Shown piece after piece: positions 3,681 through 63,129 of a stretch of 64,000 nt of DNA. The first letter of the stretch is position 1, and each line of letters begins with the position of its first letter. Origin of the DNA: Candidatus Omnitrophota bacterium (GTDB taxonomy: Bacteria > Omnitrophota > Gorgyraeia > Pluralincolimonadales > Pluralincolimonadaceae); the NCBI GenBank assembly GCA_003141835.1, contig PLNR01000002.1:78026-142025 (forward strand), given 5' to 3'. The notes beneath the pieces are model-generated. The model had not been told where the DNA came from. It searched no databases and saw only the letters and a list, made by a program, of their open reading frames with translations. The position numbers and the translations under genes are program-made.

Positions 3681-4619
3681 TCATTCGATCCTCTCTTTTA
3701 CGCCTGACACCAGGTACAGAACCGCCATCCTCACCGCTATGCCGTTCGTCACCTGCTCAAGTATCACGGAATACGGCCCGTCGGCAACCTCAGGGGTGAT
3801 CTCGACCCCGCGGTTGATCGGCCCGGGATGCATTATAAGGACGTCTTTCTTCGCATATTTCATCTTTTCTGCGTCCAGCCCGAACTTCATGGCATACTCC
3901 CTGATTGACGGGAAGAGGCTCTGCCCCTGGCGCTCCAGCTGTATCCGCAGCATATTTATGACATCTGCGCCCTCGATCGCCTCTTTGATATCGTACGTCA
4001 CTTTTACGCCGAGTTTTTCTATCTCCGGAGGCATGAGCGTCGCCGGCCCGCAGACCGTGACTTTCGCGCCCATCTTTGTCAGCCCCCAGATATTGGACCT
4101 CGCCACCCTCGAGTGCGCGATGTCGCCTATTATTGAGACGTTAAGGCCGGCTATCTTTTTTTTGTGCTCTTTTATCGTGAAGATGTCGAGCAGGCCCTGC
4201 GTCGGGTGTTCGTGCGAACCGTCGCCGGCATTTATTATCGACGGTGAGACCGATTCGGCCAGGAGTTGCGGCGCGCCGGAGCATGAATGGCGCATTATTA
4301 TTATGTTCACTTTCATCGCTTCTATATTTTTTGCGGTATCCTTGAGCGTCTCCCCTTTCGTCAGGCTCGAGGCGTTTGTCTGTATATTCACCATGTCGGC
4401 GCTCATGCGTTTCGCGGCCAACTCGAACGAGGTGCGCGTCCTGGTCGACGGCTCGAAGAAGAAGAGGACGACGGTCTGGCCGCGGAGCGTCGGCACTTTC
4501 TTTATCGGCCTCTGCGAAATCTCCTTGAACGAGTCGGCGGTCTCGAGGATGAGCCCTATCTCATCCGCCGAGAGGGTCTCAAGACCCAGAAGGTCTTTTT
4601 TCGTCCACTTGACGGCCAT
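3681..4619 (-). CDS. pyrB: Aspartate carbamoyltransferase catalytic subunit.
   Basis: STRTR motif ([13 protein letters not shown]), HPxQ ([10 protein letters not shown]) and the C-terminal HPGP/LP motif ([12 protein letters not shown]). Confidence 0.9.
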
Positions 4620-4621
4620 CT

Positions 4622-5170
4622 CTATTCCTCCATTTCGGCGACTATCACACCGTCTTCGCCGTCGGCTTCTTTTATCTTGACCTGAACGGTCTCTTTCTGG
4701 GACGTAGGTATATTCTTACCGGCGTAATCGGCCCTTATCGGCAGCTCGCGATGGCCCCTGTCGACCAGCACGGCCAGCTGTATGCTCTTCGGCCTGCCGA
4801 AGTCTATGAGAGCGTCGAGCGCGCATCTTATCGTCCTGCCGGTATAGAGGACGTCATCCACCAGGATTATAACCTTATCGTGTATGTCAAAATCTATCTC
4901 GGTCTTGTGGACGACCGGTTGTTCCGCGACGTCGGTAAGGTCGTCCCTGTACAGGGTGATGTCCAGGGCGCCCACCGGGATCTCCCTGTTGGCTATAGCC
5001 CCCATCTTCGCGGCGAGGCGGTCGGCCAGCAATGCGCCCCTCGTCCTGATCCCGACTATCGCGAGCCCGTCTACGGATTTGTTATTCTCGATTATCTCAT
5101 GCGCGATCCGCACCAGGGCGCTCTCGATCTGTCCGGCATCCATCACTTTTGCCTTCTCGCGAAGTTTCAT
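4622..5170 (-). CDS. pyrR: Bifunctional pyrimidine operon regulator and uracil phosphoribosyltransferase PyrR.
   Basis: 182 aa. PRTase motif [13 protein letters not shown]. Sits at the head of the pyrB-pyrC-carAB operon. Its own SD is GGAGGG, 4 nt before the ATG. Confidence 0.85.
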
Positions 5171-5256
5171 GAAACCCTCCGGGCAACAAAATTGCCTGTC
5201 CCCGGCTCTTTGCCGAAAACAGGCAGAATATACTTTTTCTTATGGTTACAGCTCAT
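5167..5256 (-). CDS. Putative 29-aa pyr leader peptide (upstream ORF), translationally coupled to pyrR.
   Basis: Strong SD AAAAGGAGAGGAAG directly before ATG (5254-5256). Translation is [29 protein letters not shown]. The TGA stop overlaps the pyrR ATG (ATGA). The ORF encloses the terminator hairpin listed next. Confidence 0.4.
   Translation of the reverse strand: MSCNHKKKYILPVFGKEPGTGNFVARRVS
5185..5225 (-). terminator. Intrinsic terminator or attenuator hairpin in the pyrR leader.
   Basis: mRNA UGCCUGUUUUCGGC-AAAGA-GCCGGGGACAGGCA forms a 14-bp stem (7 bp + 3 G.U + 4 bp) with a 5-nt loop. AUUUUGUU follows immediately. It ends about 10 nt before the pyrR SD. Confidence 0.45.
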
Positions 5257-5361
5257 CTTCCTCTCCTTTTCCGGCCTCACTGGGCCAGATTAAAAGGTTA
5301 CTAAAAGTAAAATATATCATGCGGCCGCCTTATTGTCAAGGGCTAATTTCAGGCGGGGCGC

Positions 5362-7461
5362 CTACGGAGCATACCCTAACGAATCCGTAGGTATCGAATT
5401 AAAGAACTTCGAGACGACCTCGAACCCGGGCTTTGGCCTCCTGTCCCATGTCAGGATCCCCCAATACTCTTCGATATTCGGGTCCTGGACCGAGGGGTTG
5501 CCGCCCTTCCACCATTCATCCGTCCATTCAAATATCACTATGCCGGCCAGGTCCGTGCCGATGCTCTCTATCTGGGCCTTCAGGGCCTTGTCCTGGGTCT
5601 CTTTCTTGACGAAAGTGCTGTATCCGGTCTCGGTTATTAAAATGGGCTTATTGTATTTCTTTGATATCCCATTCATCTCTTTCACGGTGCCTATCGCGTC
5701 GTTTTTACCGCGCCAGTTGAAGCCGTGGCCGCCGATATAGGCGTTGCAGCCGATAACGTCGAGGAAATCGAACCCGAGGTCGAATCCCTTTACCTTGAGT
5801 ATGTTCGCTGCGGTCACCGGATGGCTTTTGTCCGCGGCCTTTACCGCGAGATATATATCTTTCATGAAATTATTTACCTTGTCGAAACCGTAGCGCGGCA
5901 CCGGGTTCCCCGGCTCGTCGTAACAGAACGGCGCGTCATTCCAGATGCTCCACATGAGTATGCAGCGCCTGTTCCTGTGTCTTTTCACGACGTCCAAGGC
6001 CATCTTCTTAAGGGCTTTGAGCTCGACATCGGACGAATAATCCGTGTAGGCGGAGGGATATATGACCTGCTCTATTATCTTTAAATTATACTTCTCTGCC
6101 AGGTCAAGCAGGGCATCGGGAAGGGGCTCGTAGGTCCTTATCGTGTTTACCCCGGCCTCCTTCATCATCCTGAAATCATTCTCGAAGACCGATAGGGGTA
6201 TTTTAGAGAAGCAACCGTCGACTCCCGGAGGCAACCCCGGGGCGCTTATCCCGTAGGCCACGCCCTTTATGAAAAATAACGTACCGTCGGCGTATATCCT
6301 GTTGCCCTTCACCACCACGCCGCGTTCCGGTATCTTCCTTGACACAAGGACTTCGGGCTCACCCGGCCTCTTTTCGACTATCACCTTCCCGGCTTTCTCC
6401 CTTTCGGCGGCCCGCTGCCTTTCCACTTCTTTCTGCTTTTCCACCTCTTTGGCGCGCTCTTCGAGGCGGATGCGCTCTTTCGCGAGCTCTGCGATCTCCT
6501 CGTCTGAAGGCGTCTCCATGGAAGATATCTGGGGACGCTTAAGCGTTATGACGCCTGTGGGCACCTCTACCCTCACTGAATCCGCCGTCTCGAGGATGAC
6601 TTTACCTACGACAACACCGCCGGCCGCGAGGGTGACCTTTACCGGCTTGGAAGCCCTTATCTCGGCCAGGACCTGAAGCTGCCCTTCGAGCGCTTTCTTG
6701 CCTTTGGCGACCTTCGAGAGCTCCTTATTGAGCTCTTCGGACCTGCCCTTCGCCGCAGCCAGCTCGGCTTCCAGTTTCGCTATCTCCTCGGGTTTAGCCT
6801 GGGCCTCGGCTTTCGCCGCCTCAAGCTTCTTCTCCAGGTCGGCCCTGTTTTGTTCGAATTCCTTGAATTTTATCTCGAGCTCGTCGCGGCTGGCCCTGAG
6901 CTCTTCGAGCGATGCGCTCAATTTCGAGCGTTCGGCCTCTATGATCGCGATCTTCTTCTCCGCTTCCTTCCGCAGCGCCTCTTTCTTTACCACCTCGACC
7001 CCGGTCACGGCGATAGTTGCTACCAAAATAATCATAACAGCAACTGCGATGACCGGCCTGAGCTGCAGCAGGTTGGCGTAATTTACTATGCTCTTTCTTT
7101 CTTTTTCGGATATCCGTTCGTAATAAATACCGATAAGGTATTTATTGGGGCGGCCTTCTACCGTCTTCTTGAGCCACGCAGCCTCAGCGACCGCGGCGAT
7201 CGGTTTGGCGGAGAACGGCATGTTGATCTGCAGGCGGAGTTTGGCGGATTTTTTGTTCAGTTTTTCGGCGAGGTCGTCTTTGAGGTTGTTGACCTCGAGG
7301 CACATGCCGCCTTCGCTGACGTCCCTTGTGAAGGCCTGGTGGAACTCGGAGTATATCTCTTTTTCGTCGAGGCTGACTATCTCGAACTCGACGGGGAAGA
7401 CTGTGCTAAGCCTTATATATCTTCTGCGCTCGATTCCGCCACTGTTTTGCGGTGTTTGCAT
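5362..7461 (-). CDS. PilZ-domain / transmembrane / coiled-coil / glycoside hydrolase (GH-A clan TIM barrel) fusion protein.
   Basis: N-terminal RxxxR (RRRYIRL) and DxSxGG (DVSEGGMCL) PilZ motifs. One TM helix (PVIAVAVMIILVATIAVTGV). About 200 aa of A/E/K-rich heptad coiled coil. C-terminal TIM-barrel hydrolase signatures (GVNTIRTY, MWSIWNDAPF, ILITETGY nucleophile-Glu context). Confidence 0.7.
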   Translation of the reverse strand: MQTPQNSGGIERRRYIRLSTVFPVEFEIVSLDEKEIYSEFHQAFTRDVSEGGMCLEVNNLKDDLAEKLNKKSAKLRLQINMPFSAKPIAAVAEAAWLKKTVEGRPNKYLIGIYYERISEKERKSIVNYANLLQLRPVIAVAVMIILVATIAVTGVEVVKKEALRKEAEKKIAIIEAERSKLSASLEELRASRDELEIKFKEFEQNRADLEKKLEAAKAEAQAKPEEIAKLEAELAAAKGRSEELNKELSKVAKGKKALEGQLQVLAEIRASKPVKVTLAAGGVVVGKVILETADSVRVEVPTGVITLKRPQISSMETPSDEEIAELAKERIRLEERAKEVEKQKEVERQRAAEREKAGKVIVEKRPGEPEVLVSRKIPERGVVVKGNRIYADGTLFFIKGVAYGISAPGLPPGVDGCFSKIPLSVFENDFRMMKEAGVNTIRTYEPLPDALLDLAEKYNLKIIEQVIYPSAYTDYSSDVELKALKKMALDVVKRHRNRRCILMWSIWNDAPFCYDEPGNPVPRYGFDKVNNFMKDIYLAVKAADKSHPVTAANILKVKGFDLGFDFLDVIGCNAYIGGHGFNWRGKNDAIGTVKEMNGISKKYNKPILITETGYSTFVKKETQDKALKAQIESIGTDLAGIVIFEWTDEWWKGGNPSVQDPNIEEYWGILTWDRRPKPGFEVVSKFFNSIPTDSLGYAP

Positions 7462-11370: not shown

Positions 11371-11447
11371 TGGCGTCCCCACGGGGATTTGAACCCCGGT
11401 CGCAAGCTTGAAAAGCTCGTGTCCTGACCAGGCTAGACGATGGGGAC
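11371..11447 (-). tRNA. tRNA-Glu (anticodon UUC).
   Basis: Reverse complement is GTCCCCATCGTCTAGCCTGGTCAGGACACGAGCTTTTCAAGCTTGCGACCGGGGTTCAAATCCCCGTGGGGACGCCA. It has a cloverleaf with a 7-bp acceptor stem, a TTC anticodon in a 7-nt loop and an encoded CCA. The 3' end closely matches E. coli tRNA-Glu (GGGGACGCCA). Confidence 0.9.
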
Positions 11448-62942: not shown

Positions 62943-63017
62943 GGCGACGTACCCAAGTGGTAAGGGAGCGGTCTGCAAAACCGCGATCCACCGGTTCGAT
63001 TCCGGTCGTCGCCTCCA
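62943..63017 (+). tRNA. tRNA-Cys (anticodon GCA).
   Basis: GGCGACGTACCCAAGTGGTAAGGGAGCGGTCTGCAAAACCGCGATCCACCGGTTCGATTCCGGTCGTCGCCTCCA. It has a 7-bp acceptor stem, U73 discriminator, a GCA anticodon and an encoded CCA. Confidence 0.9.
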
Positions 63018-63042: not shown

Positions 63043-63129
63043 GCCGGGATGGCGGAATTGGCAGACGCACGGGACTTAAAATCCCGCGACCGTAAGGTTA
63101 TGAGGGTTCGACCCCCTCTCCCGGCACCA
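63043..63129 (+). tRNA. tRNA-Leu (anticodon UAA), type II with a long variable arm.
   Basis: GCCGGGATGGCGGAATTGGCAGACGCACGGGACTTAAAATCCCGCGACCGTAAGGTTATGAGGGTTCGACCCCCTCTCCCGGCACCA. The anticodon loop CTTAAAA gives UAA. A73 discriminator. CCA is encoded. Confidence 0.9.

Follow-up and report, generated by a model that had tools for sequence, protein, structure and literature searches.

The pyrimidine (pyr) operon in the analysed stretch of Candidatus Omnitrophota DNA (contig PLNR01000002.1; 64,000 nucleotides (nt), hereafter the window) begins with pyrR, and pyrR is preceded by a short open reading frame (ORF) that runs through an intrinsic terminator. The question raised by this locus is what decides whether RNA polymerase passes that terminator, and which part PyrR takes in the decision. 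The initial annotation saw no conserved PyrR-box loop in the leader and proposed ribosome-mediated attenuation in the style of enteric pyrBI, combined with a PyrR perhaps acting mainly as a uracil phosphoribosyltransferase (UPRTase). The element does not, we found, combine an enzymatic PyrR with attenuation of the enteric kind. It is genuine and well conserved as a regulatory element, and belongs to a type that is known but little studied, the Thermus type, for which the phylum Omnitrophota is new. With a probability that we put at about three in four, comparison of sequences suggests that it would act as a Thermus-type PyrR-dependent transcription attenuator, in which the translating ribosome and not an RNA helix serves as the antiterminator. 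Its parts and their positions, their conservation and covariation, and the lack of an RNA antiterminator were directly observed.

A PyrR binding loop precedes the leader ORF

All features of the operon lie on the minus strand, and their positions are given as those of the window. Directly 5' of the leader ORF, at 5297-5265, a PyrR binding loop of 33 nt is predicted (CCUUUUAAUCUGGCCCAGUGAGGCCGGAAAAGG; hereafter the box). It is composed of an outer stem CCUUUU/AAAAGG, an internal loop AAU, an inner stem CUGGCC/GGCCGG, and a hexaloop CAGUGA (consensus CNGNGA). From the consensus CCAGAGAGGCU it differs in two places, one of the N positions in the hexaloop (CNGNGA) and one compensated position of the stem. 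All features that define a binding loop (CCUUU/AAAGG outer stem, A-rich internal loop, inner stem of 6 base pairs (bp), and CNGNGA hexaloop) were found at 5297-5265.

The region 5301-5188 gave a full-length match to the Rfam PyrR family RF00515 with 44.9 bits (E = 3e-5; E-value mode, 301-nt search). Posterior probabilities approached 1 in both the binding loop and the terminator. They were low in the model's middle helix, which had non-canonical pairs in the window and is not formed there; this poor fit accounts for the score deficit. The RF00515 gathering threshold of 54 bits was not reached in the window; the scan at threshold listed three transfer RNAs (tRNAs) and no PyrR element. A PyrR element overlapping this region, which the initial annotation would have taken as a refutation of its reading, is therefore present at the E-value level and falls short at the gathering score.

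Relatives were collected by a scan of one genome per species, in which 80 loci were kept from at least 462 relatives seen, with PyrR identities of 63–97%. Nearly all of them are metagenome-assembled genomes (MAGs) of Candidatus Omnitrophota, three are Acidobacteriota, and 78 leaders were analysable. The box stands 5' of pyrR in 80 of 81 leaders (the window counted), and the single exception has just 200 nt of upstream sequence. Rfam PyrR was the sole family matching 18 of 19 sampled relatives; scores were 34–59 bits, and 3 of the 19 reached 54 or more. From 20 equal-length boxes of relatives we built R1, a covariance model for the box alone. It matched the window once in 64 kb (46.7 bits, E = 2e-7), and no second PyrR box was found there at E ≤ 1.

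Alignment of the boxes with MAFFT followed by RNAalifold gave no structure, because loops of 6 or 7 nt and unequal stem lengths shifted the register. Over 97 matches across all loci, the inner stem has compensatory changes in all six pairs, and 95% of cells are paired. The covariation score was reached by none of 500 shuffles, and in controls with slid partners the paired fraction fell from 90.6% to 31–68%. The position of the box, its scores with both models, and the covarying inner stem together contradict the earlier statement that a PyrR-box loop is missing.

The Shine-Dalgarno sequence of the leader ORF lies within the box

The leader ORF (5256-5167) has 29 codons and a TGA stop. As the initial annotation had described, it begins with ATG at 5256-5254, immediately preceded by a strong Shine-Dalgarno (SD) sequence (AAAAGGAGAGGAAG), and its TGA (5169-5167) overlaps the pyrR ATG (5170-5168) as ATGA. 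The SD AAGGAG occupies 5268-5263 and is separated from the ATG by 6 nt; its first four bases (AAGG, 5268-5265) double as the 3' arm of the outer stem of the box. The sequence between the box and the leader ATG in the window is AGAGGAAG. The program-made list of ORFs starts this frame at GTG 5280, giving 37 amino acids, and GTG 5280 sits inside the loop of the PyrR box. ATG 5256 is the predicted start codon, and its position is the one that relatives keep.

In the relatives, the leader start was defined as an ATG or GTG 4–13 nt after the last G of the box, with ATG preferred. A plain "first ATG/GTG" rule was dropped, since it chose spurious GTGs within AAGGTG. All 78 leaders have a start codon in this interval; the mode is 8 nt, and in 70 leaders the codon is ATG. 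An ATG 5–11 nt after the box occurs in 67 of 78 leaders, versus 7–10 of 78 in three control windows deeper in the leader. As positive controls we used five pyrR-pyrP-pyrB loci of Bacillaceae with 15 attenuators, all detected by Rfam (46–90.6 bits); an ATG at this distance follows the box in just two of the 15.

The overlap of SD and box is equally constant. In 78/78 leaders, the best window of pairing with the anti-SD shares 3 nt or more with the 3' arm of the box, and an independent SD-like core 3' of the box is present in just 12 of 78. The leader SD and start codon are placed where box-bound PyrR would occlude them in the window, in the 78 relatives, and in Thermus, Meiothermus, and Deinococcus. 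Motifs of PyrR that stay unchanged in comparison with the PyrR proteins of Thermus, Deinococcus, and Bacillaceae include RIAHE and GKNxPT; mutagenesis work on B. subtilis reportedly places RNA-binding residues in these motifs. Because the box is conserved and these motifs are invariant, the suggestion that PyrR is mainly a UPRTase is unlikely to hold.

The frame is kept open across the terminator

The terminator is located inside the leader ORF, at 5225-5185. Its hairpin UGCCUGUUUUCGGC-AAAGA-GCCGGGGACAGGCA (5225-5193) has a 14-bp stem (5225-5212 / 5206-5193) with 8 G-C and 3 G.U pairs and a predicted energy of -23.4 kcal/mol, and it is followed by the U-tract AUUUUGUU at 5192-5185. This structure agrees with the initial annotation. 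In the fold of 5310-5160, the hairpin is present in both the minimum free energy (MFE) and the centroid structure (z = -2.6; 1 of 200 shuffles folds as well). The stem starts 31 nt after the leader AUG in the window and at a median of 28 nt in the relatives. For terminator-based counts we used the 72 of 78 leaders in which a hairpin with a U-tract starts 15–60 nt after the box.

In 71 of these 72 leaders no stop codon interrupts the leader frame before the hairpin begins; the corresponding counts for the other two frames are 8 and 22. The only leader closed before the hairpin (L016) is an artefact of the preference for ATG; a GTG at 9 nt in that leader gives an ORF of 31 codons with an ATGA end. 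The frame stays open past the whole hairpin in 61 of 72 leaders, versus 4 and 14 in the other frames. Conservation of the leader ORF, on which the initial annotation had made its reading depend, is thus clear. The leader stop relative to the pyrR start shows a sharp peak at +1 (ATGA; 18 loci), with at most three loci at any other position. One relative, L002 (PyrR identity 96%), has a 60-nt tandem duplication at 1400-1500, between the terminator and pyrR, formed by two copies of about 30 nt (TTGCCAAAATTYGYRAAGACTGGCACTTYG). The duplication preserves the frame and introduces no stop, and the leader ORF therefore extends to 49 codons with the ATGA end kept.

These data bear on the possibility of purely translational control, as in Mycobacterium. 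PyrR would then hide the SD and lower translation of the leader and of the coupled pyrR, and the hairpin would be a constitutive partial terminator or a stabiliser acting independently of ribosomes. The SD in the 3' arm of the box, the ATGA coupling, and a separate SD of pyrR within the end of the leader ORF are all compatible with it. Against it, the terminator is retained 15–60 nt after the box in 72 of 78 leaders, and the ORF is held open specifically across it. At loci with long spacers the leader ORF crosses the terminator yet ends short of pyrR, and coupling to pyrR is therefore not the sole selected function. We consider purely translational control unlikely.

No RNA antiterminator is present

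In attenuators of the Bacillus type, the binding loop is an anti-antiterminator that PyrR stabilises, and an RNA antiterminator forms otherwise; a leader ORF would be incidental. The protein family, the binding-loop consensus, and the downstream terminator in the window are the same, and RF00515, built mostly on Firmicute sites, aligns from end to end. We therefore asked whether the 5' arm of the terminator can pair with the box. The MFE structure of the nascent RNA was computed from the box to the terminator loop, with the 3' arm of the terminator omitted.

In the window, no nucleotide of the terminator 5' arm is paired with the box, which stays folded. Pairing between arm and box over 4 nt or more was found in 2 of 72 Omnitrophota-type leaders versus 15/15 Bacillaceae attenuators. 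At least four pairs of the box were lost in 5 of 72 versus 14 of 15, and the median stabilisation by arm pairing was -1.8 kcal/mol versus -8.4 kcal/mol. The energy of the duplex between the arm and the upstream leader was no better than that with shuffled arms (median z -0.13; 2 of 72 below -2); this z-score separates Bacillaceae from Omnitrophota weakly, and the nascent-RNA MFE test is the cleaner one. An RNA antiterminator is thus absent from the leader of the window and from the related leaders.

The Bacillus-type mechanism meets these results badly. The complementarity between box and terminator arm that all 15 Bacillaceae attenuators possess is lacking in the window and in 70 of 72 relatives, the shuffled-arm comparison gives no sign of a hidden duplex, and the middle helix of RF00515 is not formed. 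The leader ORF, conserved far beyond chance, is absent from the Bacillaceae leaders. We regard this mechanism as very unlikely for the window. With no RNA antiterminator, RNA structure by itself would give the PyrR site no means of influencing the terminator, and relief of termination by a ribosome is the best reading.

What the leader ribosome could respond to

The part of the initial annotation that assigned attenuation to the ribosome is borne out by the conserved ORF through the terminator and the lack of an RNA antiterminator. Its pyrBI-style signal is not supported. In that mechanism, UTP-sensitive pausing of RNA polymerase (UTP, uridine triphosphate) sets the distance between ribosome and polymerase, and PyrR has no regulatory part. 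A leader ORF spanning an attenuator that lacks an RNA antiterminator is indeed the textbook arrangement of pyrBI, and a UTP-dependent speed of the polymerase could add a second input. A covarying PyrR box, however, occupies the leader SD in all relatives and always occurs together with pyrR, and access to the ORF would be controlled by this protein-binding site. From the start codon to the terminator, the 72 leaders are rich in A (48% A, 27% U), and the sequence of this segment is not conserved. No conserved U-rich pause tract was seen before the terminator in these 72 leaders, pausing itself not being readable from sequence. We give the pyrBI-type explanation hardly any weight.

The leader peptides are unrelated among relatives and range from 14 to about 49 codons, and in L005 (PyrR identity 84%) the terminator is read in a different frame than in the window. 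Taken with the frame kept open across the terminator, this points to selection on an open, translated frame and not on the peptide; a functional micropeptide, favoured by the conserved position of the ORF and its good SD, was rejected on the same ground, since the peptides are not conserved.

Proposed mechanism

The Thermus-type mechanism can be described for the window as follows. The transcript would start a few bases before the PyrR binding hairpin at 5297-5265. The AAGG of its 3' arm would be the core of the leader SD, and the ORF, beginning 8 nt further, would traverse the terminator and end at the pyrR start codon (ATGA). With plentiful pyrimidines, PyrR together with UTP or uridine monophosphate (UMP) would clamp the hairpin and hide the SD, and no ribosome would follow behind the polymerase. 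The untranslated leader would let the terminator fold, and transcription would end near 5185-5192. With scarce pyrimidines, PyrR would be off the RNA; a ribosome would load and within a few codons cover the 5' arm of the terminator, and the polymerase would read on. This ribosome would pass to pyrR by stop/start coupling, as the leader stop lies on the pyrR start codon and re-initiation is therefore favoured. We infer the binding of PyrR, its nucleotide dependence, the occlusion of the SD, and a close coupling of ribosome and polymerase in Omnitrophota.

Control by PyrR and the translating ribosome instead of an antiterminator is said to have been proposed for Thermus strain ZO5 in 1997, by Van de Casteele et al. 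in the Journal of Bacteriology, and to our knowledge this mechanism was never proven. Our full-text literature searches found no paper describing a leader-peptide model for PyrR; the 1997 Thermus paper lay outside the texts searched.

Several points weigh against the Thermus-type mechanism in the window. The RF00515 score is below the curated gathering threshold. The alignment used for covariation was fitted to the model, so that pair counts are biased toward that structure, and the loci of the relatives come from MAGs. The first leader codons (5231-5252; AGCUGUAACC...) can pair weakly with the terminator 5' arm (5212-5225, minus strand) at -6.6 kcal/mol; this pairing leaves out the PyrR box and is not conserved among relatives. 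In 10 of 72 relatives the ORF stop falls within the hairpin, mostly in its loop. With the AUG at a median of only 28 nt before the terminator stem, the timing is tight and a pause of the polymerase may be needed; a pause site was not identified in our analysis.

On balance, the comparison of 78 species, with its controls for frame and with Bacillaceae, supports a mechanism in which the polymerase is or is not trailed by a ribosome depending on a regulatory protein, with the ribosome as the antiterminator. To a specialist in pyr regulation this will hardly be surprising. The value lies in the broad comparative support and in the point on thresholds: curated Rfam cut-offs miss the PyrR class with a leader ORF (44.9 versus 54 bits in the window, and most relatives below the gathering score). 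A pyrR operon with a leader peptide should not be misread as a PyrR-independent attenuator of the enteric style. The pyr leaders also offer a way to test transcription-translation coupling in Omnitrophota, an uncultured and little-studied phylum.

We propose, tentatively and short of calling it probable, that the PyrR attenuator with a leader ORF and no antiterminator may be the standard form in whole phyla, namely in every analysable Omnitrophota species sampled, in Deinococcota and, in a version poor in terminators, in some Acidobacteriota. If so, control of termination by an RNA-binding protein that gates a leader-translating ribosome might have its first broad evidence in the set of 78 species, with the UTP-dependent speed of the polymerase perhaps a second input to the race between ribosome and polymerase.

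The pyr operon of the window

Directly downstream of the PyrR box are the cognate pyrR and the pyrimidine biosynthetic genes pyrB, pyrC, and carA, all on the minus strand. The pyrR gene (5170-4622; 182 amino acids) encodes a bifunctional pyr messenger RNA-binding regulator and UPRTase (NCBIfam NF003549, 247.6 bits; cut-off 138). The best match of its product among solved structures is 1ufr, the PyrR of Thermus thermophilus (E = 1.7e-67). It is followed by pyrB (4619-3681; NCBIfam aspartate carbamoyltransferase, 416.7 bits), pyrC (3679-2390; NCBIfam dihydroorotase TIGR00857, 425.6 bits), and carA (2224-941; NCBIfam carbamoyl-phosphate synthase small subunit, 516.8 bits). The gaps between pyrR, pyrB, and pyrC are 1–2 nt. 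A GGAGGG at 5180-5175, 4 nt before the pyrR ATG and within the end of the leader ORF, would serve as the SD of pyrR itself.

A predicted sigma-70-type promoter at 5339-5311 (minus strand) has a -35 hexamer TTGACA (5339-5334), a 17-nt spacer with TG, and a -10 hexamer TATATT (5316-5311). It matches the consensus at 11 of 12 positions and is the sole promoter-like site in 4500-5800. Transcription would start near 5304, about 7 nt 5' of the PyrR box, which begins about 13 nt 3' of the -10 hexamer. A -10-like hexamer lies within 30 nt 5' of the box in 61 of 77 related leaders.

An ORF of 699 amino acids (5362-7461, minus strand) stops 22 nt before the -35 hexamer. It has weak glycosidase-like NCBIfam matches only (beta-glucuronidase/beta-galactosidase, E = 4e-10 to 1e-4), and a terminator-like hairpin (5424-5408) lies within its 3' end. 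The three tRNA genes, at 62943-63014 and 63043-63126 on the plus strand and 11374-11447 on the minus strand, are the sole Rfam matches of the window at gathering threshold.

Variant leaders among the relatives

Six loci (L012, L013, L019, L046, L060, L065) and perhaps four more (L032, L048, L055, L056) carry inserts of 100–200 nt between the leader terminator and pyrR. Two or three hairpins of very high predicted stability (-42 to -71 kcal/mol) make up the inserts. Shared motifs are, for example, GAATTAATCCCGC...GCGGGATAAGTTCA and ATAAGTTATGTC...CATAACTTATGTCTTCACTTATGAAA, the last of which spans the pyrR start. No Rfam family matched them at E ≤ 1. At these loci the leader ORF stops soon after the terminator. 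A second regulatory element is one possible reading of the inserts, a repeat element another.

In three MAGs of Acidobacteriota / Vicinamibacterales (L059, L069, L073), the box is about 150 nt 5' of pyrR and its 3' arm reads ..CAAGAGG. An ORF of 35–47 codons with an ATG or GTG start follows the box and overlaps the pyrR start. The terminator finder detected no U-tract terminator in these three leaders; a GC-rich hairpin (CGTCCGCGTGAGCGGACG) is present there instead, repeated two or three times. They may represent a terminator-poor variant of the same scheme.

Comparison with known systems

The pyr attenuators of the Bacillus subtilis type (RF00515) have in common with the window PyrR, the consensus of the binding loop (UUUAA internal loop, CNGNGA hexaloop, AAGG 3' arm), and the downstream terminator. 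They differ in the antiterminator, which overlaps the box and the terminator 5' arm in all 15 Bacillaceae attenuators, in the lack of a leader ORF, and in number, with three attenuators per operon versus one in the window.

In pyrBI and pyrE of E. coli and Salmonella, it is well established that a ribosome translating the leader prevents the terminator from forming, again with no RNA antiterminator. The signal is UTP-sensitive pausing at U-rich tracts, and no regulatory protein takes part, whereas in the window a PyrR site would gate the leader and the corresponding segment is A-rich.

For the pyr operon of Mycobacterium smegmatis, Fields and Switzer (2007), as cited in PMC13328217, reportedly described a PyrR-dependent translational repression. 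As proposed for the window, initiation of translation is blocked there when PyrR binds a loop carrying the ribosome-binding site. The occluded site there is pyrR's own and a terminator is lacking, whereas in the window it would be the site of the leader ORF, the translation of which would control a terminator.

The closest likeness is with the pyr leaders of Deinococcota, obtained with the Thermus PyrR sequence. In Deinococcus (L083), the box is followed after 6 nt by an ATG, and the ORF passes through the terminator and ends 8 nt inside pyrR. The box region there (1330-1395) looks duplicated or extended (CCCUUUUCGGCAGACCCGCGAGUCUGC then ACCCGCCCCGUGAGGCAGGAAAGG) and was matched neither by Rfam at E ≤ 0.01 nor by the box model R1 at E ≤ 1. 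None of the three Deinococcota sites was reported by RF00515 at E ≤ 0.01, in comparison with 44.9 bits for the window. In Meiothermus (L082), the ATG comes 7 nt after the box, and the ORF runs through the terminator to an ATGA overlap with pyrR. In Thermus (L081), the ATG likewise comes 7 nt after the box, and 28 codons, versus 29 in the window, lead through the terminator GCGGAGGC-UUUG-GCCUCCGC-UUCUUUUU to an end 11 nt inside pyrR. The nascent-RNA MFE structures of the Thermus and Meiothermus leaders contain no pairing between box and terminator. Thermus and the window differ in phylum (Deinococcota versus Omnitrophota), in the unrelated leader peptide, in the AT-rich leader of the window, and in the end of the ORF, for which the ATGA overlap of the window resembles Meiothermus. 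They share the box with an ATG 7–8 nt after it, the SD in the 3' arm of the box, the lack of complementarity between box and terminator, an ORF that traverses the terminator and has its end overlapping the start of pyrR, and the operon order pyrR-pyrB-pyrC, and Thermus PyrR is the closest homologue of known structure.

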